From Marinobacter sp. (GTDB lineage: Bacteria; Pseudomonadota; Gammaproteobacteria; Pseudomonadales; Oleiphilaceae), in contig NZ_JAWLCH010000010.1 of NCBI RefSeq assembly GCF_041687235.1, positions 1,900 to 65,899 of the forward strand: a DNA stretch of 64,000 nucleotides. Direction: 5' to 3'. Below are positions 1-10,253 of this stretch, in pieces. Below the pieces are notes generated by a model that saw only the letters and a list, made by a program, of their open reading frames with translations, was not told the origin of the DNA and did not search any database. The first letter of the stretch is position 1; each line of letters opens with the position of its first letter. Both the position numbers and the translations under genes were made by a program.

Positions 1-1
1 A

Positions 2-319
2 AAAGAGGTTCATACGACTCAAGGCGCTAGAATATTAAAAGTCAAAAAACCTGACTATTTGGGTAAATCAAAATGGGCCTTTAGATATAATGGGCATGCT
101 ATTGAGGCAAAAGTTTCGGATATACCATGGTTGGTTAGTTTTCAGGCTGGGGATATTCCTGTAAATCCTGGTGACTCCATTCGAGCTGAGCTGAAAGAGG
201 ATATCGCTTTTGGTTACGACGGAGAAATAATTCATGTCTGGTACGATATACTTGAGGTCTATGAAGTCATTCCTGGAATGAGAGCTGTCCAAGGCGGATT
301 ATTTGATTCTAAGAAGTGA
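2..319 (+). CDS. Cassette-encoded hypothetical protein, C-terminal part (5' end outside window)
   Basis: Frame open from position 2 (KEVHTTQGARILKVKKPDYLGKSKWAF...) to TGA at 317-319, abutting attC1; AT-rich. Confidence 0.75.
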   Translation, partial: KEVHTTQGARILKVKKPDYLGKSKWAFRYNGHAIEAKVSDIPWLVSFQAGDIPVNPGDSIRAELKEDIAFGYDGEIIHVWYDILEVYEVIPGMRAVQGGLFDSKK

Positions 320-391
320 TTTAACAAATGCAGGTTGTCGGACAGTGTACTCCGCTGCGCTCCGTACCTGCCGCAACTGCAAGCGTTATAA
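319..391 (+). repeat. attC1
   Basis: R'' ATTTAAC 319-325, internal inverted repeat, R' GTTATAA 385-391. Confidence 0.9.
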
Positions 392-466
392 GTTGCGAGA
401 AGCTTTTGCAGGACTTCGGAAAGAGAGCAGATATTTGCGATCCGATGCGGATAGAGGACAGGAAAT

Positions 467-670
467 TTGGGTAGTCTGAGTAGGTGGTTCAAGGTTCTAC
501 AGCTACTGTTACCGATTATCCTGATCTGCATCGGGGTGCTTCATGCAGTGTCGACTCTGATAGCGGCCGGTTTTGACGCTGCTATCAATCAATTTCTATA
601 TCCGTTCATCTTTGTCACAAGCGGGCTCGTTCTCGGTGACTTCAACAGGCGCCGCAAGGATCTAAACTGA
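467..670 (+). CDS. Small hypothetical membrane protein (67 aa), cassette 386-765
   Basis: Only plausible sense ORF in the cassette; purine-rich RBS before TTG; two hydrophobic stretches and a basic tail. Confidence 0.55.
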   Translation: MGSLSRWFKVLQLLLPIILICIGVLHAVSTLIAAGFDAAINQFLYPFIFVTSGLVLGDFNRRRKDLN

Positions 671-686
671 GGGTCTATGCCACGAC

Positions 687-771
687 TTATAACAAGGCCA
701 GGCACGGCGACGCCTACTACATTGCGGCTTCGCCTCCATTCCGTAGCCGCGCATGCTGGCTGGCGTTATGC
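687..771 (+). repeat. attC2
   Basis: TTATAAC 687-693 ... GTTATGC 765-771; R'' complements the TTATAA at 386-391. Confidence 0.95.
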
Positions 772-777
772 AGGATT

Positions 778-1116
778 ATGAACTGGTCCGTTGTTAAAAA
801 GTTCTCAGGTGCGGCACTGTCCTTAATTGGTTTGGCGGTGGTTGCAGACGTTATTATCGTTGCACTCTTTGAGCGCGGCGCGGTGACCGCTGAGTATGCT
901 GGCTGCTATCTTACCGATGCAATGGTGGTCGGTTACGAGTGCCAGGGCTTCTGGCCAGCAGACATCATATCAGCGTGGCTCAATCTGCCGTTGTGGTCGG
1001 TCTACGGGCTCCTTTTTGCGCCATATAGCCTTAAAGCAGCGCTTCTTGCGGTCTTGGTTTGGTCACCACTAGTGATATATGTCATGGCGTCTCGCAAGGT
1101 GGCCCAGCATGCATAA
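778..1116 (+). CDS. Hypothetical membrane protein (112 aa), cassette 766-1189
   Basis: ATG 12 nt after the core site; TAA lies inside the R'' of attC3; hydrophobic segments; CxxxxxxxxxxxC motif. Confidence 0.8.
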   Translation: MNWSVVKKFSGAALSLIGLAVVADVIIVALFERGAVTAEYAGCYLTDAMVVGYECQGFWPADIISAWLNLPLWSVYGLLFAPYSLKAALLAVLVWSPLVIYVMASRKVAQHA

Positions 1117-1195
1117 CCAGGCCAGTCACGGCGACGGCTACTACATTGCGGCTGCGCCTCCATTTCGTAGCCGCGCGTGCTGAGCGGCGTTATGC
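1111..1195 (+). repeat. attC3
   Basis: GCATAAC 1111-1117 ... GTTATGC 1189-1195; same family as attC2 and attC8. Confidence 0.95.
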
Positions 1196-1206
1196 AGGGA
1201 GCAATC

Positions 1207-1623
1207 ATGAAACCACGAATTAGCATGATCACTTTAGGTGTAAGTGACCTGCCGCCCTCTGTAGTGTTTTACGAGCAGGGCCTCGGGCTTCCGCGAATGG
1301 ATTCTCCTCCCGAAGTGGCGTTCTTTACGTTGAATGGTACTTGGCTAGGATTATATGGTCGCGAAGCGCTGGCTGAAGATGCGTCAGTCTCTGGGGAATC
1401 AAGCGGATTCTCAGGGTTCAGCCTAGCGCACAATGTGGGGTCCGAGCAGGAGGTTGATCAAGTTATGGCTCAAGCTGCATCAGCCGGCGCCGTTGTGACG
1501 AAACCAGCTCAGAAAACAGATTGGGGTGGGTACGCAGGATACTTTGCTGATCCGGACGGTTATCTCTGGGAAATCGCGCACAATCCGCTTTTTTGGGTCG
1601 GGCCCTCAGATGAGCCTGCATAA
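1207..1623 (+). CDS. VOC/glyoxalase-bleomycin resistance family protein, cassette 1190-1668
   Basis: MKPRISMITLGV...DWGGYAGYFADPDGYLWEIAHNP motifs; RBS before ATG 1207; stop inside R'' of attC4. Confidence 0.9.
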   Translation: MKPRISMITLGVSDLPPSVVFYEQGLGLPRMDSPPEVAFFTLNGTWLGLYGREALAEDASVSGESSGFSGFSLAHNVGSEQEVDQVMAQAASAGAVVTKPAQKTDWGGYAGYFADPDGYLWEIAHNPLFWVGPSDEPA

Positions 1624-1674
1624 CAAACCGCATCAGTACGCGGCCGATGGCCGCCGCTTATTTTTGCGTTACAC
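1618..1674 (+). repeat. attC4 (short, 57 bp)
   Basis: GCATAAC 1618-1624 ... GTTACAC 1668-1674. Confidence 0.9.
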
Positions 1675-1689
1675 CCTACTGATCCGGCC

Positions 1690-1718
1690 TTGACGGCTAT
1701 ACGGCAGAGCCGTATATT
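1690..1718 (+). promoter_or_regulatory. Cassette-internal sigma70 promoter with operator palindrome for higBA-2-like module
   Basis: TTGACG 1690-1695, 17 bp, TATATT 1713-1718; inverted repeat TATACGGC-aga-GCCGTATA 1698-1716. Confidence 0.75.
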
Positions 1719-1724
1719 TTAGCA

Positions 1725-2036
1725 GTGCTATTTATCGAAACCTCAACGTTCACCAAGCTATTGCCGAACTACCTCACGGATGAGGAATACCGGGGGCTTC
1801 AAACTTACCTTCTACAGAAGCCAGATGCAGGGGATCTGATTAAAGGTTCGGGTGGTGTTCGTAAAGTTCGGTGGGCACCAGCGGGTTCGGGAAAGAGCGG
1901 TGGTATCAGAGCCATTTACTACTGGAAGAAATCTGACCACGAGATATGGATGCTCACGCTGTACAGTAAATCAGAGCGCGCCAGTATTCCTGGCCACACG
2001 CTCAAGCAGATAGCGGAGGCAATCAAAAATGGGTGA
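1725..2036 (+). CDS. higB: RelE/HigB-2-like mRNA interferase toxin
   Basis: FIETSTF...GDLIKGSGGVRKVRW...GKSGGIRAIYY pattern of HigB-2-type toxins; toxin-first order. Confidence 0.85.
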   Translation: MLFIETSTFTKLLPNYLTDEEYRGLQTYLLQKPDAGDLIKGSGGVRKVRWAPAGSGKSGGIRAIYYWKKSDHEIWMLTLYSKSERASIPGHTLKQIAEAIKNG

Positions 2037-2316
2037 CAGAAACCTTGGGGCAGAGATTCTTGACGGTATCAATGAAATCAAGCAATTCAAGAAGGGTAAA
2101 TTGGCCTTGCGAACGCATGAGCTTGCAGAACCTTCGCCGCCCAAAGTGATCAGGCTGAAATTGCACATGTCGCAGTCAGCATTTGCCGGCCTTATGGGTG
2201 TGAGTGTGCGAACCCTTCAGGACTGGGAACAGGGTCGGCGCGAGCCGCAAGGCCCTGCGCTTGCGCTTCTGCGTATTGCTGAGCAACACCCGGAAGTTTT
2301 TAGTCAGCTTCACTGA
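2029..2316 (+). CDS. higA: HTH (Cro/C1) antitoxin, HigA-2-like
   Basis: MSQSAFAGLMGVSVRTLQDWEQGRREPQGPA HTH; overlaps toxin stop by 8 nt. Confidence 0.85.
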   Translation: MGDRNLGAEILDGINEIKQFKKGKLALRTHELAEPSPPKVIRLKLHMSQSAFAGLMGVSVRTLQDWEQGRREPQGPALALLRIAEQHPEVFSQLH

Positions 2317-2326
2317 CCAAAGTGAG

Positions 2327-2404
2327 GTGTAACCAAGCCATGCACCGGATGCCAAAACCTCCGCTTCGCTCTGGTTTTGTCACCGGTGATGGCGGGCGTT
2401 ATGT
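2327..2404 (+). repeat. attC5
   Basis: GTGTAAC 2327-2333 ... GTTATGT 2398-2404; near-identical to attC6. Confidence 0.95.
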
Positions 2405-2493
2405 GGTGCCCGCCATGCTACAAACACGATTTTTGAACAATGTTTAATCACGGGTAGCCAGGACGCTACTCAGAAAAGAAAGGAACTCTGACT

Positions 2494-4376
2494 ATGAGTA
2501 ATCTGATTGCCGCCTGTGTTGGCGACATGCACGTTTGCCCGATCAAAGGGCATGGCTCTTCCCCCATCCTGCCAAACGGCTCCAGCATCCTTGTTGAAGG
2601 TAAACCCATTGCCCGGGTGGGCGATGTCACCGGTTGCGGTGCGGTTATTACCCAAGGCTACCCGCTGGCGTTGGCCGATGGTATGCCAGTGGCCTACCTT
2701 GGCAGCCCTACCAGTCATGGCGGATCTATTGTCAGCGGTAATCCACGAGTGATTTTGGGTGTCGCCACTACCACAGCACCCGTAGTGGACTTTGCCATGG
2801 CTGGCGCACTGGATGACAAAGGCCAGCTTACCCCTGCGGCCAAAGAGTTGCTGGACAAAGATCCACAAGAGTTTGTGCGCAAAGCTGCGCATAAAGGCGC
2901 ATTGATTGATGAAGGCTTGCCGGACAAGTCACTGGATGACTCGCCCGAAGAAGATAACCGCCCCAAAGTCCGGGTAGAGGCAGGATTCTTTTTTGATGGC
3001 ACAGGCAATAACCGTGACAATACCCGTGCCTACCAGCAGGAACTTGATAAATGCCTGACCGCCAATGCCGCCGGAGCCATCTCGGAAGACGAGTGCAGTA
3101 ATGAGCTGTCGCAGGTGATGGAAGGCAGTTACCTCAATGCCGAAACCAACGTCTCGAAGCTGGAGACGCTTTACTTTAAAGACACCATAGAGCAAGACGG
3201 TTCACCAACCCACCGGCTGTCCGTTTATGTTTCAGGTGTTGGCACCAAGTTTGGTGAGCCCGACGATGGTTTGAGCATGGGGCTAGGCTTGGGGGAGCAA
3301 GGCATCCTCAGGAAGGTTGAGGAAGGTGCAGAGCAAATCACCTTTGAGATTGCCAACCGAGTCAATGATTCCATTGACGAATTGATCATCGATGTATTCG
3401 GATTTAGCCGGGGCGCGGCAACGGCACGACATTTCGTAAGCCGTGAGGTTTATGACACAACGGGCTCTTTATACGGTGAGTACAAAGGGGCATTGGTCAG
3501 AGCTTTCGAGCGGGAGGGCATTCCATGGCCTGAGAAAGTGACGGTTCGGTTTCTGGGGCTGTTCGATACCGTTGCAGGAGTCGCCGATGTAGGCAATCTG
3601 GATTATTCCGCCCACGATGGAAAAACGGGGCGTGTCAACGTCAACATAAAACCGGGGCAGGTCCAGCGGGCCGTCCAATTCGTTGCGAGGGATGAGCGGC
3701 GTCACAACTTTTCGTTAAACAGCCTTCGAAGTGATTCGGGTGACCTGCCTGAGAATTTCAGCGAGTGGGTGCTGCCCGGAGTACATTCGGATATTGGCGG
3801 CGGGTATCCAGAGCGGTTTCATGAGCGAATTGAAGTTCGCCCTCCAGAAGTCATCACGGGTAAAGACCGACGGAACCCCGAGGCCAGTTTCGAGTTTTCC
3901 CGCATGCTGCAGGAGCGAGCCCTGATCAAGGCCGAGGGCTGGATCGGATCGCACAATCCGTTGGCGACCCTCGAGATTGAACAGAAGCGCTTGCCCATGC
4001 TGCCCACTCAGCCGAGCCTGAGTGGCAATAATGTCGCTTTCACCTTTGGCTGGACCGGGAGGTTCGCGGCGAATACTCCAGAATTCCCCTGTACTTGATT
4101 CACAAACTGGCTGTCGATGCCGGTGTGCCTTTCCAGTCCATCAACCCCGATGTGAAAGGCTTTTCAATACCGCAAGAGCTTGTAGCAGTTGCCAGAAACC
4201 TTGCAGCCCACGTCTGGCACGGTCAAGATTTGCTGTTGTCACCCGAGTCAAAAGCCCTGCTTAAGCAACGGTACATCCATCATTCCGATCATTATCTGGA
4301 AATGGGACCGTTATACCCTTTCAGGCCGGCAAAGGGTGGTCGCCGGGCTATTCACCTCAACATGACCAGTGAATAA
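2494..4376 (+). pseudogene. PAAR-DUF2235 (Tle1-like phospholipase) T6SS effector, split by a 1-nt frameshift at ~4044
   Basis: N-terminal PAAR (CPIKGHG...GKPIARVGD...CGA...HGG), then FFDGTGNN, GFSRG, FLGLFDTV and HSDIGGGY. ORFs 2494-4098 and 4095-4376 join (AFT|LWLDREVRGEYSRIPLYLIHKLA) if one C is restored at ACC/CTT 4042-4046, giving ~627 aa. Confidence 0.85.
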
Positions 4377-4388
4377 ACGGAGACTGCT

Positions 4389-5006
4389 ATGAGTATCAAA
4401 CGCTGGATGACCTGTCTCTGTATCCTGGTGTTGGTAGGGTGTTCGGAACCAACGGAGTCAGAGGGTCCAAGGCACGGTCCTAACAGTACATACCGCAATA
4501 TCAATGTCGTCGCTCCAAAACACTACGATGTCTGGGTGGATAAGTTCTTTGTTGAGTCCTTGTCAGAGAACATTGGCTGGCGAGCGCCTATTGGCATTGT
4601 GTCATGTTGCTGGGAAAAGCCTCACGGCGCTTCGGCGGAATGGCAAACTATGCCCGAAGTCTTCCTCATCCGCTGGTTCTCTTTCGCGGAGCAGCAATCC
4701 TATGAAGCCCTGATCCGGCTGGAAAGCCCGGATGAGATTGAGGAAAAGATGAAGGAAGTCGCTGCATTTGAACGCTTTGGCGAGATGGTGGAGCGACCGC
4801 GCTACAATCTTGTTCTTGGCTTGGCACCGGGCGGAACAGTGGTTGCGTGGATTATGAACCGGGGTGTGAATGCTATCGAAGTTGGTCGTTTTAAAGCCAA
4901 ACCCTACGACGACAAAGAATCAGACTACACTCAATGGGTTAATGAGTATCTCGAGAGAGAAGGCGATTACCTCAAAGAGAACGGGGTGAAGCTGGATGGT
5001 TGGTAG
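4389..5006 (+). CDS. DUF2931-like lipoprotein, putative cognate Tli immunity protein
   Basis: Lipobox LVGC; W-rich core (WQTMPEVFLIRWFSFAEQQSY...LVLGLAPGGTVVAW); 12 nt downstream of the effector in the same cassette. Confidence 0.8.
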   Translation: MSIKRWMTCLCILVLVGCSEPTESEGPRHGPNSTYRNINVVAPKHYDVWVDKFFVESLSENIGWRAPIGIVSCCWEKPHGASAEWQTMPEVFLIRWFSFAEQQSYEALIRLESPDEIEEKMKEVAAFERFGEMVERPRYNLVLGLAPGGTVVAWIMNRGVNAIEVGRFKAKPYDDKESDYTQWVNEYLEREGDYLKENGVKLDGW

Positions 5007-5040
5007 GGTTATAGGCCTGAAACCGTGGGAGTTAGCCACC

Positions 5041-5118
5041 ACATAACCATGCCATGCACCGGATGCCAAACCCTCCGCTTCGCTACGGTTTTGTCACCGG
5101 TGATGGCGGGCGTTATAA
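5041..5118 (+). repeat. attC6
   Basis: ACATAAC 5041-5047 complements TTATGT at 2399-2404, defining one cassette 2399-5112; R' GTTATAA 5112-5118. Confidence 0.95.
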
Positions 5119-5159
5119 GCACGGGGCAATCAGGCTCCGGCATAAGTAGGTGAGAGTTT

Positions 5160-5351
5160 TTGGGAGAAATACTCTTTGACGGGTTGTTTAGGGGAGGGAT
5201 TCGGTTCCTCGCAAGGCTTCTCGGTTGTGAGCAAACCTGTGAAGGCGGCGCAGGACTTCTCTTGTTGGTCCTTTTGCTGATCTTGTTCATATGTGTGGTG
5301 GTTCTTGTAGTTGGCCACATTCGGAAACCGGCCAAGAAGAAAGGTCGCTGA
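5160..5351 (+). CDS. Small hypothetical membrane protein (63 aa), cassette starting at 5113
   Basis: Sense ORF ending 12 nt before attC7; one strong TM helix followed by RKPAKKKGR; TTG start uncertain. Confidence 0.5.
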   Translation: MGEILFDGLFRGGIRFLARLLGCEQTCEGGAGLLLLVLLLILFICVVVLVVGHIRKPAKKKGR

Positions 5352-5362
5352 AGCCGTGCCTG

Positions 5363-5442
5363 TTATAACAAGTCAATTAAATTCGTTCCGGCCCGATGGG
5401 CCTCCACCGGACGCCCTTGTCAGGGCGCCGTTTATTGCTGGC
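5363..5442 (+). repeat. attC7, broken at the R' crossover point
   Basis: TTATAAC 5363-5369, L'' CAATTAAA and L' TTTATTG intact; the expected GTT at 5443 is replaced by TACAG. Confidence 0.8.
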
Positions 5443-5452
5443 TACAGAATTC

Positions 5453-5480
5453 CGAGTTACCCACGAACAGTAGACACCTT
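5453..5480 (+). mobile_element. Possible IS3-family terminal inverted repeat remnant
   Basis: (C)GAGTTACCCACGAACAGTAGACACC resembles the recalled IS3-group end pattern TGA..TACCCAC.....T.GACAC; no transposase or partner end found. Confidence 0.35.
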
Positions 5481-5560
5481 CTATAGTTAGGTGGACTTAC
5501 CCCGGTGCGGACGGTGGCATCGCTGGCCGTCAGTTTAGAACAACAACGAGAAAAGGGCAG

Positions 5561-5775
5561 ATGAGCGAGCACGATGCACGGTTTTGGGATCGGTCGGCCA
5601 AAAATGCGCAGCTGTTCTGCGTCTCGTGGGCAAGGCCCCGAGCGTCGTGACCACATGCTCCTCGGGTTCGTTGCTACAAGCGATCGGTGAAGCGGGGTTT
5701 GAAATACTTGAGAACGAACGACACGGAACGAAGAAAAGTGACTACCGTCCCTTTATTGTCGCTCGGGCGAGCTGA
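5561..5775 (+). pseudogene. Internally deleted class I SAM-dependent methyltransferase
   Basis: N-terminus MSEHDARFWDRSAK fused out of frame to a C-terminus LRLVGKAPSV...IGEAGFEILENERHG...RPFIVAR; motif I region absent. Confidence 0.6.
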
Positions 5776-5880
5776 CTCTGCCTGAAGTCAGGCATGCGGG
5801 AGTGCGCGCTCCCGTGCCGCTCCGGCTTTAAGGGTGTATCCCCGACGCGAAATCAAAAATGTTCATGAACAGGAAAAAAC

Positions 5881-6759
5881 ATGAAAAAACAGCTGCTGGT
5901 CTTACTGATACCCTTCCTGCTATTGGCAGGATGTGCGAGTAGCCCGTCTGCTCTCAGACATGATGTCGCCGTGTCGTATGACGCCGAGCGTATCGCCTAT
6001 GATGTGGCCGGAGAGGGCGAAACGGCGCTGATTTTCGTTCACGGCTGGAGCTGTGACGGGCGCTACTGGCAAGAGCAGGTCCCGGTATTCGCGAAAGCCT
6101 ATCGGGTGATTACGGTCGACTTGGCAGGGCATGGGCATTCCTCATTGGAGCGATCCGATTATTCAATGCTGTCGTTCGCGCAGGATGTGAAAGCCGTTAT
6201 GGACAGGGAAAACATTGGTCGCGCTGTTCTGATCGGGCACTCAATGGGAGGTGGCGTGATTGCCGAGGCGGCCAGGCTCATGCCGAAGAGGGTTGTGGGC
6301 ATTGTCGGGGTCGATACCCTGCAAAACGTTGGGGAACGTACACCTGAGAGTGTCATTGAGGAGATGGTAACGCCATTTGAATCTGATTTCAGAACGGCGA
6401 CGCAGGGTTTTGTTTCACAAATGTTCCCGGCAGGTACCGATCAAGAGCTGATGAACTGGATAAAGGAAGACATGTCATCAGCGCCCAAGGCGCCGGCCAT
6501 GAGTGCCTTTCGTAACTACCTGGGTCAGTATGTCAGCGGAGATGCCGCCGCTGTCTTCAAGGATGTCAGCGTTCCTGTGGTCTCAATAAATGCACGACTA
6601 TGGCCGACCGCATTTGAAGAAAACCAAAAGCATATTAAAGACTATCAGCTTCTCTATATTGAGGAATCAGGCCACTTTCCCATGCTGGAAAGGCCTGACG
6701 CCTTTAATGCGCTGTTACAACAGACCATTGAAGCAATTGAAACGCGCAATGGCATCTAG
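5881..6759 (+). CDS. Alpha/beta hydrolase fold lipoprotein
   Basis: Lipobox LAGC; HGWSCD oxyanion motif, GHSMGG nucleophile elbow, SGHFPMLE catalytic His. Confidence 0.92.
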   Translation: MKKQLLVLLIPFLLLAGCASSPSALRHDVAVSYDAERIAYDVAGEGETALIFVHGWSCDGRYWQEQVPVFAKAYRVITVDLAGHGHSSLERSDYSMLSFAQDVKAVMDRENIGRAVLIGHSMGGGVIAEAARLMPKRVVGIVGVDTLQNVGERTPESVIEEMVTPFESDFRTATQGFVSQMFPAGTDQELMNWIKEDMSSAPKAPAMSAFRNYLGQYVSGDAAAVFKDVSVPVVSINARLWPTAFEENQKHIKDYQLLYIEESGHFPMLERPDAFNALLQQTIEAIETRNGI

Positions 6760-6821
6760 CCTTTGCATCACATGCGTGCCGGTGTCTCCGCTGTTCTGAG
6801 ACACCCATACCGGAGGGGCCG

Positions 6822-7232
6822 ATGGACATCAAATGCGTCTCGGGATTTGCCACGATAACCCAGGACCCTGCTGCAAGTGCCTCGCTGTATGAAGGACTGC
6901 TGGGGCTGCCGCTGGAGAAGATGGACGATTATCGCTTCATGGACAAATTCCCCGGGACGAACCATTTTGGTGTCTGGCCGCTTGCCATGGCCGCCCAGTC
7001 CTGTTTTGGGCAGGATGAATGGCCTGAGGGGGTTCCTGTGCCGACTGCCACAATTGAATTTGAGCTGGCGGATGCGGCCGCTGTCGAGGCGGCCGTGGAC
7101 GAGTTGAAAGCGAAAGGACAAGCATTCGTTCATACCGCCCGTACCGAACCCTGGGGGCAGACCGTCGCCCGGTTCATGAGCCCCGAGGGGATATTGGTGG
7201 GGCTGAGTTATGCGCCGTGGCTTCATGAGTGA
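6822..7232 (+). CDS. VOC family protein
   Basis: TIEFEL...EPWGQTVARFMSPEGILVGLSY VOC-type beta-alpha-beta-beta-beta motif. Confidence 0.85.
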   Translation: MDIKCVSGFATITQDPAASASLYEGLLGLPLEKMDDYRFMDKFPGTNHFGVWPLAMAAQSCFGQDEWPEGVPVPTATIEFELADAAAVEAAVDELKAKGQAFVHTARTEPWGQTVARFMSPEGILVGLSYAPWLHE

Positions 7233-7290
7233 GTGGTAAGGGGGGGGCAGACCCCTTGAATTATTGGCCAGACGGTTTCAGAGAGTACGT

Positions 7291-7362
7291 GTAATCATGT
7301 GGGGGTGGGCTGTTGTTGCGATACTGGCACATCTTTGGAGTAGAAGTGGGCTTTCAATCTAA
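7291..7362 (+). pseudogene. 3' remnant of a truncated cassette membrane-protein gene
   Basis: VIMWGWAVVAILAHLWSRSGLSI* ends with TAA inside the R'' (ATCTAAC) of attC8; no matching core site (TTAGAT) upstream. Confidence 0.5.
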
Positions 7363-7440
7363 CCAGTGCAGGCACGGCGACGCCCACTACATTGCGCCTT
7401 CGGCTCCATTTCGAGGGCGCGCATGCTGCAAGCGTTATGC
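7357..7440 (+). repeat. attC8
   Basis: ATCTAAC 7357-7363 ... GTTATGC 7434-7440; same family as attC2/attC3. Confidence 0.95.
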
Positions 7441-7452
7441 AAAGCGTTCGTC

Positions 7453-7480
7453 TTGACGTACGTACCTGTAGGCGTACACT
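7453..7480 (+). promoter_or_regulatory. Promoter/operator of yefM-yoeB cassette
   Basis: TTGACG 7453-7458, 16 bp, TACACT 7475-7480; GTACG...CGTAC inverted repeat between them. Confidence 0.6.
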
Positions 7481-7512
7481 TGATTAGAAGTTAAACACGC
7501 AAGAGGTGCGTC

Positions 7513-7755
7513 ATGACCGGAATCACAGCAACTGAGGCGCGCAGCAACCTTTATCGGTTGATTGACGAAACCGCCGAGTCCCACCAACCAATCGTCATCA
7601 TGGGTAAGCGGAACAAGGCCGTCCTGGTTTCCGAGGAAGACTGGTCTGCAATTCAGGAAACACTTTACCTGCTCTCCGTACCAGGTATGCGGGAGTCTAT
7701 TCGTGAGGGGATGGATACCCCCGTGGATGAATGCGATGAGGAGCTGGACTGGTGA
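7513..7755 (+). CDS. yefM: Phd/YefM family antitoxin
   Basis: ITATEARSNLYRLID...PIVIMGKRNKAVLVSEEDW...ETLYLL. Confidence 0.93.
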   Translation: MTGITATEARSNLYRLIDETAESHQPIVIMGKRNKAVLVSEEDWSAIQETLYLLSVPGMRESIREGMDTPVDECDEELDW

Positions 7756-8015
7756 CATGGAAGTTGGTTTACACCAAGCAAGCCCAGAAAGATGCAAAGA
7801 AGTTGGCCTCCAGCGGCCTCAAACCAAAAGCCCAGGAACTGTTAGCGCTGATAGCGGAAGATCCATACCGCAAGCCGCCTCCGTTTGAGAAGCTCATTGG
7901 TGATCTTGCGGGGGCCTATTCACGCCGCATCAATATTCAGCATCGTCTGGTCTACCAAGTGCTCGAGGACGAGCGAGTGGTGAAAGTTCTCAGACTCTGG
8001 AGCCATTACGAATAA
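7752..8015 (+). CDS. yoeB: Txe/YoeB family toxin
   Basis: EKLIGDLAGAYSRRINIQHRLVY...WSHYE; GTGA overlap with antitoxin. Confidence 0.93.
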   Translation: MTWKLVYTKQAQKDAKKLASSGLKPKAQELLALIAEDPYRKPPPFEKLIGDLAGAYSRRINIQHRLVYQVLEDERVVKVLRLWSHYE

Positions 8016-8016
8016 T

Positions 8017-8094
8017 GCATAACCAGCCGCTGTTGCCGGACAATTTTTCCACCGCTTCGCGGCTCCAAAATTGCCGCAAAGCTCCGCGTTAAGC
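8017..8094 (+). repeat. attC9
   Basis: GCATAAC 8017-8023 ... GTTAAGC 8088-8094. Confidence 0.93.
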
Positions 8095-8098
8095 TCCA

Positions 8099-8127
8099 TT
8101 GTTGCGTGGTGCGCAACATGCTAAAAT
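8099..8127 (+). promoter_or_regulatory. Promoter/operator of higBA cassette
   Basis: TTGTTG 8099-8104, 17 bp, TG-extended TAAAAT 8122-8127; inverted repeat TGTTGCG-N5-CGCAACA 8100-8118. Confidence 0.65.
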
Positions 8128-8133
8128 TCCCTC

Positions 8134-8412
8134 ATGATTAAATCATTCCGTCACAAAGGACTGAAGCGGTTTTACTCGACCGGCCACACGTCTGGCATAC
8201 AACCCGACCATGCCAAGCAGCTGCGTATGCAGCTGGCTGCTCTGGATACGGCGACTTCAGTGGAAGACATGGATATCCCTGGTTTTCGGCTTCATCCATT
8301 GAAGGGTAAAGACAAAGGCCAGTGGTCGATTTGGGTTAACGGAAATTGGCGCATGACGTTCGAGTTTCAGGACGGCAACGCCTACATTCTTGATTATGAG
8401 GATTATCACTAA
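8134..8412 (+). CDS. higB: HigB (RelE/ParE superfamily, plasmid-maintenance killer type) toxin
   Basis: [14 protein letters not shown]...RLHPLKG...[15 protein letters not shown]...DYEDYH. Confidence 0.93.
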
Positions 8413-8705
8413 TGACTATGCATAATCCGCCGCATCCTGGTGAATTCATTCGGGAGGTGTACCTGGAGCCTTTTGGTATCAGTTCCCGTCAGCTTGCTTC
8501 CAGTCTGGGCGTTTCACCTTCCACTTTGTCCCGGTTGCTCAAAGGGGATAGTGGTATTAGCCCGGAAATGTCTCTTAGGCTGTCCAAGGTTCTCGGGCGC
8601 ACCCCTGAGAGCTGGTTGGCGATGCAGGATATGTACGATCTGTGGGTGGCCCGCAATACGGTCAATCTGGATGGCATTCATCCCCTGGATTTCGAAGCCG
8701 CTTAA
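8412..8705 (+). CDS. higA: HigA addiction-module antidote (HTH)
   Basis: [18 protein letters not shown]...[24 protein letters not shown]; stop in R'' of attC10. Confidence 0.93.
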
Positions 8706-8771
8706 CCAGAGGTTGTTGTCGGACGCGCCTACGCTGGCGCTCCGGCACTCCGCAAAGCCAGGGCGTTAGCA
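8700..8771 (+). repeat. attC10
   Basis: GCTTAAC 8700-8706 ... GTTAGCA 8765-8771. Confidence 0.93.
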
Positions 8772-8827
8772 GCTACGGCTTCCTTCCAAATCTTGCGGGT
8801 TGAGTAAAAAAGGAATAATTTGTACTC

Positions 8828-9091
8828 ATGGATGAGTTTGAATTCGACGAAGCCAAAAGCTAGGCCAACCTGGACAAGCACGGTATAGATTTCGTGGCTG
8901 CCCAAGGGCTTTGGAAAGATCCATACCTGCTGGAGATCCGTGCAAAATCAGAGGATGAGCAGAGGTTTTTGCTGATAGGCAAGATTGGTGAAAAGCACTG
9001 GTCGGCTGTCGTCACATACAGGGATGCTCGTATTCGTCTGATTTCAGTCAGACGTTCCCGTAAGAAGGAGGTTGAGCTCTATGAAGGCTAA
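8828..9091 (+). pseudogene. brnT: BrnT family toxin with in-frame TAG at codon 12
   Basis: MDEFEFDEAKS*ANLDKHGIDF...RFLLIG...IRLISVRRSRKKEVELYE; TAG at 8861-8863. Confidence 0.85.
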
Positions 9092-9350
9092 AGACTTCGA
9101 CAAGAAATTTGAGGAAGGCCAGGAAGATATTGTTGATGATCTTGACCTGTCTTCTGCTCGTCGTGTTAATCAGGAACAAAAGCGAATCAACGTTGATTTC
9201 CCGGCTTGGGTTGTAGAGTCGTTGGATCGCGAGGCGGCGCGCATTGGCGTTACCCGCCAATCAATCATCAAGGTGTGGCTGGTGGAGCGTCTACAGGCAG
9301 AGTCTGCTAACAAGCCGCCCAATGGTGACGCCGCAGGCGGCGCACATTAG
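9081..9350 (+). CDS. brnA: BrnA/CopG-like ribbon-helix-helix antitoxin
   Basis: MKAKDFDKKF...KRINVDFPAWVVESLDREAARIGVTRQSIIKVWL; last ~15 codons read through attC11. Confidence 0.85.
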   Translation: MKAKDFDKKFEEGQEDIVDDLDLSSARRVNQEQKRINVDFPAWVVESLDREAARIGVTRQSIIKVWLVERLQAESANKPPNGDAAGGAH

Positions 9351-9363
9351 CGGAGCGTTAAAT
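9305..9363 (+). repeat. attC11 (short, 59 bp)
   Basis: TGCTAAC 9305-9311 ... GTTAAAT 9357-9363. Confidence 0.9.
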
Positions 9364-9675
9364 GCCAGTAATAGCAAGGTCCAGAGCTCCAACAATCTGG
9401 TCTCTGAGATGTGAGAGGGAGCCAATAGGGCTCTTGAGGTGTTTTTCGGGCACGGAGGAAATTTGCGGAGTTAACAGCAACAGCTCCTGATCGGCAAAGC
9501 TGATTTCGGGAGTGAGCCCCTGCATGGCTTCGCCACCGAAGGCAGAACGTTTGCCCAAGGGGATAACAATGCGAGTTGCCAAATCGCTCAAGAGGCTGCT
9601 TTGGATATCCATCAGGTATGGGTAGTGAGCCTTGCTGACTTTGCTCGGGTTGGGGTACACATCGAACTGTGCCAT
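9358..9675 (-). CDS. ccdB: CcdB family gyrase toxin (cassette inverted relative to array)
   Basis: MAQFDVYPNP...YPYLMDIQSSLL...TRIVIPL...ALDLAITGI; C-terminal TGI-type ending; stop codon is the TTA of the core site. Confidence 0.93.
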   Translation of the reverse strand: MAQFDVYPNPSKVSKAHYPYLMDIQSSLLSDLATRIVIPLGKRSAFGGEAMQGLTPEISFADQELLLLTPQISSVPEKHLKSPIGSLSHLRDQIVGALDLAITGI

Positions 9676-9920
9676 CAGAACTCCCTGAATTCGTCGCCGA
9701 AGCATCCATGTTGTTCGACGAAATCGTTGTAACTTTTTATCGCAGCGCGATTTTCTTCAACCCATTGTGCGGCTTCGCGTTTCGAAAGCTCTTCTTTCAG
9801 AGCTCGTTCCAGGGTGGCAGACAAGTTAATGTTCAGTTCCCGGGTTTTACGCAGAAGATCGCTATTGATTGAGAGGTTCGCTGCTTTTTTGGGGGCGGCT
9901 GAGTTATAGAGTTCGGCCAT
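9675..9920 (-). CDS. ccdA: CcdA family antitoxin
   Basis: KKAANLSINSDLL...NINLSATLERAL...WVEENRAAIKSYN...FGDEFREF. Confidence 0.92.
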   Translation of the reverse strand: MAELYNSAAPKKAANLSINSDLLRKTRELNINLSATLERALKEELSKREAAQWVEENRAAIKSYNDFVEQHGCFGDEFREF

Positions 9921-9960
9921 GAGGGCCTCCGAGAAGACATAGAATTCAGGTTTTGATCTT

Positions 9961-9980
9961 ATGCGCATAGCTATGCGCAT
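9961..9980. promoter_or_regulatory. Perfect 20-bp palindrome upstream of ccdA, probable operator
   Basis: ATGCGCATAGCTATGCGCAT equals its own reverse complement; 40 bp upstream of the ccdA ATG. Confidence 0.65.
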
Positions 9981-9986
9981 GCAAGT

Positions 9987-10058
9987 ATTTAACCAATGGC
10001 TGTTGTCGGACGCACCTGCGCTGGCGTTCTGTCACGCCGCAAAACTAAGGCGTTATGC
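9987..10058 (+). repeat. attC12 (last attC of the array)
   Basis: ATTTAAC 9987-9993 ... GTTATGC 10052-10058; I found no further attC downstream. Confidence 0.92.
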
Positions 10059-10066
10059 TGGTACGT

Positions 10067-10129
10067 CCGTTTATGAGCCCTGAAGGTGTTTTGGTGGGGC
10101 TGCGTTATGTGCCGTGGCTTAATGAATGA
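10067..10129 (+). pseudogene. 3' remnant of a VOC gene paralogous to 6822-7232
   Basis: FMSPEGVLVGLRYVPWLNE* versus FMSPEGILVGLSYAPWLHE*; 48/57 nt identical from ATG to stop (hand count). Confidence 0.75.
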
Positions 10130-10253
10130 CGCCTGACTATCTCGCCAAATTGTTTTATGGTGCAGCACTCCCATCACGTAAATAGTAGTCGCTGCCGGGC
10201 TGCCTGTTCGCGATGTTTCAGGTGTCTCAGTAAGAGGCGATAGAGAAAAACCG

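Follow-up and report, generated by a model that had tools for sequence, protein, structure and literature searches.

A type VI secretion effector–immunity module packaged as a putative integron gene cassette in Marinobacter

The cassettes of chromosomal integrons are mostly of unknown function. The one described here lies in a draft genome of Marinobacter sp. (4.31 Mb, 36 contigs), within a stretch of 64,000 nucleotides that was analysed as a whole and is called the window below (C10:1900-65899; positions given without a contig name are those of the window). The nearest protein relatives bear Marinobacter names. The cassette holds two genes. The first encodes a PAAR domain fused to a Tle1-type lipase, a predicted type VI secretion system (T6SS) effector, and the second encodes a DUF2931 lipoprotein that would serve as its immunity protein. 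The evidence makes it highly probable that the segment 2399-5112 is a genuine and recently active cassette of a Marinobacter sedentary chromosomal integron, and that its cargo is a T6SS effector–immunity module.

A two-gene cassette in a chromosomal array

The segment has a 5' R' half-site (TTRRRY) and its own 3' attC site (R'' RYYYAAC ... R' G|TTRRRY), and the two are complementary. GTTATGT occupies 2398-2404, so the cassette opens with TTATGT at 2399; ACATAAC stands at 5041-5047, and the G of GTTATAA at 5112. Complementarity between R'' and R' extends over 11 bp (CACCACATAAC versus GTTATGTGGTG). The attC sites at the two ends, 2327-2404 and 5041-5118, are 95% identical. Both form imperfect hairpins with three unpaired bases, all on the 3' arm, and folding of the single-stranded DNA favours the bottom strand over the top strand at each of them (-18.5 versus -15.5 and -20.2 versus -17.8 kcal/mol), with modest z-scores (-2.3 to -3.9). 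The original prediction had placed a single cassette of 2714 bp here, with TTATGT at 2399 pairing with ACATAAC at 5041. These coordinates proved exact, and the absence of an internal attC site was borne out by the attC detector described below, which found none between 2401 and 5044. The cassette is also much larger than others, as had been proposed. The interval between attC sites has a median of 657 bp (75 intervals in 11 Marinobacter arrays), about a quarter of the length of this cassette (~4x), and copies of the effector–immunity cassette form a size cluster at ~2.7 kb.

From the letters alone, a PAAR tip fused to a DUF2235 lipase with the motifs GFSRG, FDTV and HSDIGGGY had been read in the first gene, and a lipobox protein in the second. 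Searches with the corresponding Pfam models (PF05488, PF09994 and PF11153) recovered all three domains above the Pfam cut-offs. The PAAR domain covers amino acids 1-95 (PF05488, E = 6.6e-15, 55 bits) and matches PDB 8GRA, a PAAR protein (E = 2e-5). The Tle1 catalytic domain (PF09994, E = 1.2e-19, 71 bits against a cut-off of 27) has its best solved structure in the Tle1 of E. coli EAEC (PDB 6SJL, also 6SKI; E = 3e-40 over amino acids 159-439). Residues S305 (GFSRG), D358 (FDTV) and H431 (HSDIGGGY) are invariant in an alignment of 14 homologues and align with the serine, aspartate and histidine of 6SJL, which we take, by residue number, to be the catalytic triad of EAEC Tle1. A GxSxG motif and a Ser-His-Asp triad are shared by Tle families 1-4 (PMC9860674).

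The lipoprotein has the LVGC lipobox and carries a DUF2931 domain (PF11153, E = 1.3e-22, 81 bits). Our own lipobox pattern recognised 27 of 29 homologues; the two exceptions have SGGC in that position. At most of the loci searched, in different genera, the Tle1 gene has one or more DUF2931 genes directly 3' of it, and the family includes Tli1 of V. cholerae E1, which neutralises Tle1 by direct interaction (PMC10395195). A sequence search returned no solved structure for the immunity protein.

Table 1. Positions in the window of the effector–immunity cassette, its parts and the adjoining signals
Feature	Position	Strand	Basis
Sigma-70-like promoter of the upstream toxin–antitoxin cassette, TTGACG-17-TATATT	1690..1718	+	Consensus match only
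attC of the preceding toxin–antitoxin cassette	2327..2404	+	Crossover G(2398)|TT marks the start of the effector–immunity cassette
Integron gene cassette, 2714 bp, two genes and own attC	2399..5112	+	More than 20 similar copies starting at 2393-2407 and ending at 5112-5118
Conserved 95-nt leader: R' half-site, GG-N10-GC motif, GTAGCC..GCTAC hairpin, AAGGAA ribosome-binding site	2399..2493	+	Alignment of 27 leaders
PAAR–Tle1 effector, 5' part, 534 amino acids, the last ~24 out of frame	2494..4098	+	Pfam, PDB 6SJL, homologue alignment
One-base frameshift site relative to intact homologues of 620-630 amino acids	4035..4045	+	Alignment with intact homologues
Effector 3' remnant, other frame, 93 amino acids	4095..4376	+	~90% identical to intact C-termini, no further stop codons
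DUF2931 lipoprotein, 205 amino acids, lipobox LVGC (Cys18), presumed Tli1-type immunity, intact	4389..5006	+	Pfam PF11153
attC of the effector–immunity cassette, R'' ACATAAC, R' GTTATAA, crossover after G5112	5041..5118	+	Detector, folding

The attC sites were called with a detector of our own, which requires TAACNA, a spacer of 35-125 nt, GCGTTA and a stable hairpin, and which was calibrated on the window and the whole genome. It places 11 attC sites between 322 and 10055, all on the + strand, and none on either strand of the other 54 kb of the window. Across the genome, it returned 13 clustered sites at C10:714-11954 and ~30 scattered single hits in 4.3 Mb; at that background rate, ~0.08 sites would be expected by chance in 11 kb. 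The G+C content is 51-55% over the first 10 kb of the window and ~60% beyond. The array cargo in the window includes five toxin–antitoxin cassettes, and an Rfam scan of positions 1-10200 gave no match.

Generic attC patterns, both strict (RYYYAAC...GTTRRRY with folding) and relaxed, missed most sites or returned noise and were replaced by the genus-specific detector. A covariance model of attC was not built, as the MAFFT alignment of the 11 attC sites was not structure-aware.

An intact gene for an integron integrase (intI) lies on another contig, at C15:1344-2279, and scores 425 bits against TIGR02249 (cut-off 265). Upstream of it, an attI-like region and at least two cassettes run off the start of the contig, with an attC site facing that start. 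No overlap was found between the ends of C15 and C10, and joining them failed. Since C10 starts within the array and the contig ends do not overlap, the window is taken to be the distal end of a sedentary chromosomal integron.

Relatives of the module were sampled in 151 species genomes of the genus, and 34 loci were fetched. The relatives fall into three tiers. Those of tier 1 share 74-92% amino acid identity, have the PAAR domain and occur in ~19 genomes, often in several copies (up to 11 matches per genome). Those of tier 2 share ~60% identity and also have PAAR, and those of tier 3, at ~40% identity, lack it and are present in most genomes. More than 20 homologous cassettes are found in other Marinobacter arrays. 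Had this been an ordinary effector locus, close homologues might have been expected in vgrG islands without attC sites; instead, those with 71-88% nucleotide identity lie mostly in attC arrays and have cassette-exact boundaries, and vgrG islands are not where they are found. Sequence sharing begins at G|TTATGTGGTG (also printed G|TTATGTGGTGCC) and ends at GCG|TTA. On the 5' side of the shared start, each locus has a different attC site, and on the 3' side of GCG|TTA, unrelated sequence and different cassettes follow.

The neighbours of the cassette are themselves rearranged. At locus L013, the directly adjoining 3' cassette is YefM-YoeB, 93% identical to window 7432-8092, and a CcdAB cassette comes after it; in the window, these two lie 2.3 and 4.2 kb further on. 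At L017, a BrnTA cassette lies one cassette further on. Two genomes hold intI and the cassette on one contig. The complete genome G022 has intI at 103,272-104,207 (-) and two copies of the cassette at 116.8 and 120.1 kb (+); the corresponding positions in G049 are 156.9 kb (-) for intI and 172.2 kb (+) for the cassette. In both, the cassette is in the canonical orientation downstream of intI, at a distance of 12-16 kb, and intI is intact in most carrier genomes. Because the gene pair lies between one R' half-site and one attC site, IntI could excise and reinsert it. Judging from the comparative data, the pair would leave as a circle and enter again at attI or at another attC site, and such events would account for its varied array positions, its varied neighbours, its spread over many Marinobacter species and the diverged copies within single genomes. 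We infer from these sequence comparisons that the cassette is mobile.

The same two genes also occur outside integrons. The tier 2 modules have no attC site, a different leader and non-integron neighbours, and Pseudomonas Tle1 genes without a PAAR domain stand directly after vgrG. No close relative was found on a plasmid, where the best match is ~30% identical. PAAR–DUF2235 fusions at that ~30% level are present on plasmids of Aeromonas and others, so other vehicles are known.

Several further observations concern the array and its surroundings. Just past the last attC site, 61 nt at 10069-10129 are 84% identical to the 3' end of a glyoxalase-like cassette gene (7172-7232) and are a remnant of another cassette copy at the array edge. 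A small cluster of three co-oriented attC sites far from intI (C2:318207-321825) resembles a CALIN, that is, an attC cluster lacking an integrase, and a few isolated attC-like sites occur on C1. In several homologous cassettes, foreign DNA lies within the attC site, just after ACATAA(C) (L012:2930-3000, L016:7130-7200, L097 and the third copy of L102). The start of C15, read as its reverse complement, has a sequence beginning GTGTGCCGGGCATGG directly after an attC site that resembles window 5443-5510. Among the cargo of related arrays are IS110-family transposases and a group-II-intron-type reverse transcriptase, and attC-targeting elements probably break this assembly.

Secretion machinery and the state of the module

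The original prediction had proposed checking the host for tss genes and vgrG, and both were found. Contig C1 carries one complete-looking T6SS cluster at ~40-65 kb, in which TssA, TssC, TssF, TssK, TssM, TssH/ClpV, TagH and VgrG score above curated cut-offs (VgrG with 607 bits against TIGR03361), and an hcp gene lies at C1:497014. The genome also has a second VgrG fragment, at a contig end, and one other PAAR gene. As VgrG is encoded in the genome, a spike for the PAAR domain exists, and an N-terminal PAAR domain fused to a toxin in a VgrG-bearing host is the arrangement of a PAAR 'evolved' effector. In the sampled genus, IntI is present in 99 of the 151 species genomes and a T6SS in 114. TssC is found in 18 of 19 cassette carriers against 114/151 overall, a marginal difference (~0.03, simple binomial).

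Within the main T6SS cluster, at C1:40000-45089, vgrG is followed by a 190-amino acid candidate adaptor of the DUF4123/Tla1-like type (weak match, 42 bits) and then by a 791-amino acid protein without an NCBIfam match, which is probably an uncharacterised cargo effector.

Family knowledge suggests how the intact form would work. The N-terminal PAAR domain would cap the VgrG spike of the host, which would make a carrier gene unnecessary. The fused Tle1-type serine phospholipase (Ser-Asp-His) would then be fired into the periplasm of neighbouring cells and degrade their membrane phospholipids. In sister cells, the DUF2931 protein, as an outer-membrane lipoprotein, would bind the lipase in the periplasm and protect the cell. 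VgrG loading, the periplasmic target, neutralisation by the lipoprotein, excision by IntI and expression are all steps that we infer.

Several points weigh against reading the segment as a working cassette of this kind. The attC detector is tuned to the genus and is not a published tool. In this draft assembly, intI and the cassette are on separate contigs (C15 and C10), and their linkage here is presumed. Four copies of the cassette clade (L019, L099, L101 and L105) have no attC site, and the module thus also persists outside arrays. The effector frame is broken, with the open reading frames (ORFs) 2494-4098 and 4095-4376 in different frames. No sigma-70-like promoter was found within the 95-nt leader or elsewhere inside the cassette. 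The fit of the cassette's PAAR domain to the VgrG of the host is an assumption, and any generalisation to T6SS arsenals extrapolates from a single effector family.

As to transcription, read-through from the promoter of the upstream toxin–antitoxin cassette is a plausible source in this array; no terminator is predicted between that promoter (1690-1718) and the effector gene. Conservation of the leader itself (2399-2493 and its counterparts in 26 homologous cassettes) far exceeds that of synonymous sites. An invariant GTAGCC-AGGA-GCTAC hairpin lies ~20 nt 5' of the ribosome-binding site, and the very start of the cassette has TGGTGCC-N5-TGCT, a GG-N10-GC motif with sigma-54-like spacing. The T6SS cluster of the host encodes a sigma-54-type activator (C1:50931-52508). 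A sigma-54 promoter in the leader was considered and rejected: the motif agrees with only 8-9 of 12 consensus positions, the genome as a whole has 0.5 sites per kb with a score of at least 9, and the T6SS operons are not preceded by any conspicuous one.

Intact copies encode an effector of 620-630 amino acids; here, there is no full-length ORF, and the gene is read as 534 and 93 amino acids. The frameshift falls 3' of the catalytic motifs. Since the 93-amino acid remnant is still ~90% identical to intact C-termini and has no further stop codons, the break is either recent or an assembly error. With the weapon frameshifted in this strain, only the shield is demonstrably intact, and a truncated effector beside a whole immunity gene means that the cassette here most likely only protects against relatives that still fire the toxin.

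Taken further, this leads to an alternative that has about an even chance of being right for this strain: that its cassette is an orphan immunity ('acquired defence') unit, in which the weapon has decayed and the lipoprotein is selected because neighbouring Marinobacter fire a cognate Tle1. The immunity gene has stayed intact despite the frameshift in the effector. Four other distinct copies also have a broken effector (L021, L098, L107 and the pair L017/L106), and in no fewer than three of them a DUF2931 coding sequence still follows; orphan immunity arrays are known in rAID-1 (10.1101/471110) and in V. cholerae (PMC5361080). However, the break is very recent, as the state of the remnant indicates, and selection specifically for loss is not seen. 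Moreover, the frame could be followed as far as a stop codon in 26 tier 1 copies; 21 of them are intact, and each of these has a lipoprotein gene of 205-211 amino acids after it. For this strain, the alternative is a refinement of the best explanation; for the cassette family, it leaves the effector–immunity reading standing.

It is considerably less likely that the frameshift is a sequencing or assembly error and that the strain has an intact, working PAAR–Tle1. In favour of an error are that one base is affected, that the assembly is a draft of 36 contigs and that the downstream frame is perfectly kept. Nevertheless, the site is not a long homopolymer, and other genomes independently hold broken copies.

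Selection and history of the cassette family

The cassette genes bear signatures of selection. Median ratios of nonsynonymous to synonymous divergence (dN/dS) are 0.04 (PAAR), 0.09 (lipase domain) and 0.14 (immunity protein), and dS is saturated (~1.5-1.7) in both the toxin and the immunity genes. Across homologous cassettes, the attC sites are 92-96% identical and the coding DNA 71-88%. Conservation of attC against saturated dS indicates that something preserves the site, be it selection for recombination or homogenisation within arrays.

Pairs of copies that are more alike in the lipase part are also more alike in the immunity protein (Mantel r 0.72, a value reached by 0 of 5000 permutations), and PAAR identity is correlated with neither. 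As far as alignments can tell, the unit is a conserved delivery module joined to a co-diverging toxin–antidote pair. The PAAR region (amino acids 1-95, 2494-2778) has a dS of 0.70, less than half that of the lipase domain (1.59). This suggests that gene conversion or recombination may swap toxin–immunity parts behind a shared delivery domain.

Copies within the same genome have diverged, with 84-88% identity in the effector and 55-80% in the immunity protein, and some genomes hold at least three. By maximum likelihood, all copies flanked by attC group together in a single clade (100/99 support) with the orphan tier 2 group as its sister, and copies that share a genome fall in different parts of the clade. 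Of the copies that lack attC, two are nested within the attC-flanked set, and two others fall at an unresolved base. The nested copies point to secondary loss of attC. The tree would fit a history in which the module was captured once into cassette form and then diversified and was exchanged among arrays.

This history bears on the possibility of a fossil cassette, one that an ancestor took up a single time and that has since been inherited vertically as part of the ordinary chromosome, no longer moved by IntI. Sedentary arrays can be stable, and the attC site is damaged, missing or interrupted in L011, L012, L016 copy 1, L019, L097 and L099. An immobile cassette would nonetheless be hard to reconcile with attC sites that have stayed conserved while synonymous sites became saturated, with neighbours that differ between species and break exactly at the crossover, with the scatter of same-genome copies in the tree, and with intI genes that are intact here and in most carriers; we regard it as improbable. 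That the repeats belong to another class of intergenic repeat and the unit to an ordinary genomic islet is scarcely credible: its sole support is that attC was called by a home-made pattern, whereas the 7-bp R'' and R' cores fit RYYYAAC and GTTRRRY, the sites form imperfect hairpins that are more stable on the bottom strand and all share one orientation, the cargo of this and related arrays (the toxin–antitoxin cassettes, the transposases and the reverse transcriptase) is typical of integrons, and the TIGR02249-family IntI has an adjoining attC site.

Relation to known systems

As proteins, the two are unremarkable members of the PAAR, Tle1 and DUF2931 families; what is unusual is how they are packaged. 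Known Tle1–Tli1 pairs (EAEC, 6SJL/6SKI; P. aeruginosa Tle1/Tli1a, PMC13133936; V. cholerae E1, PMC10395195) likewise combine a DUF2235 enzyme bearing GxSxG, Asp and His with an immunity gene directly downstream, whose product is a lipoprotein or periplasmic. The immunity protein of V. cholerae is also a DUF2931 member, whereas that of P. aeruginosa belongs to DUF3304. Known Tle1 proteins, however, are cargo effectors of vgrG islands, loaded on VgrG with or without a DUF4123 adaptor. The Marinobacter protein is fused to PAAR, has neither vgrG nor an adaptor gene nearby and is encoded in an integron cassette.

As a cassette, the unit resembles those of other sedentary chromosomal integrons, such as toxin–antitoxin and phage-defence cassettes (for mobile integrons, 10.1101/2024.07.02.601719), which likewise have an R' half-site and an attC site and lie in an array, here presumably downstream of intI. 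Defence and toxin–antitoxin cassettes, too, are multi-gene and larger than average. Unlike the cassettes described in the literature searched, this one carries a predicted interbacterial weapon with its antidote, a cargo that would depend on a secretion machine encoded elsewhere in the genome.

The rAID-1 arrays of Bacteroidales (Ross et al., 10.1101/471110) are similar in that a stockpile of T6SS immunity genes lies beside a tyrosine recombinase and has repeats 'reminiscent of integrons'. The rAID-1 recombinase is of the XerD family, however, classical attC sites are absent and the genes are orphan immunity genes, whereas the Marinobacter arrays have IntI and usually effector and immunity genes together. 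In the T6SS auxiliary clusters of V. cholerae (Kirchberger et al. 2017, PMC5361080), effector–immunity modules are likewise exchanged horizontally and old immunity genes are retained. That exchange proceeds by homologous or illegitimate recombination, while the boundaries in Marinobacter are integron crossover sites. The same study notes a resemblance to integrons, yet reports no evidence in V. cholerae for module insertion facilitated by an integrase (PMC5361080).

The orphan PAAR–Tle1 and DUF2931 modules of other Marinobacter (~60% amino acid identity, e.g., the ELB17 locus L018) and of Stutzerimonas, Halopseudomonas and Hahella share the two-gene architecture and the domain order. They differ in lacking attC, in having another leader and in lying between housekeeping or toxin–antitoxin genes, and they are the sister group of the cassette clade. 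A literature search, which did not cover subscription journals, returned no description of a T6SS effector–immunity pair as a classical integron cassette. What is found here is a known effector–immunity family on a vehicle previously undescribed for that family.

T6SS effector–immunity pairs move on genomic islands, plasmids and prophage-like elements, and by homologous recombination. In this case, a complete weapon-plus-shield unit starts and stops at integron crossover sites in over 20 independent contexts, which would add site-specific recombination as a means of gaining, losing and reordering competitive specificities. A link to stress is possible if this IntI is SOS-controlled like others. 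The original prediction went further and cast the integron as a reservoir for T6SS arsenals. This claim stands in part: one effector family does occur in many arrays, but the 25 commonest Pfam families in 124 cassette ORFs include no other T6SS effector family. On balance, the evidence leans slightly towards the broader view that IntI/attC integrons are exchange platforms for T6SS arsenals. Under it, the PAAR–Tle1/Tli clade would have diversified within Marinobacter integrons, genomes would stockpile specificities that do not cross-protect, and reshuffling or exchange by IntI would change which rivals are killed or resisted.

If true, this would be the first documented class of secretion-system effector–immunity modules that integron recombination moves, and the 'biobank' role of integrons would be extended from phage defence to interbacterial warfare. 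It would also constitute a new class of integron cargo, beyond resistance, toxin–antitoxin and phage-defence functions. With one attC type and many natural toxin–immunity variants in a non-pathogenic marine genus, the family offers a tractable case.

A further pattern is seen among the orphan modules. At loci L109-L112 (genomes G100 and G088; ~60% identity), additional DUF2931 genes and 3' pieces of effector genes stand after PAAR–Tle1, which recalls the arrays of immunity genes that effector displacement has left in V. cholerae.

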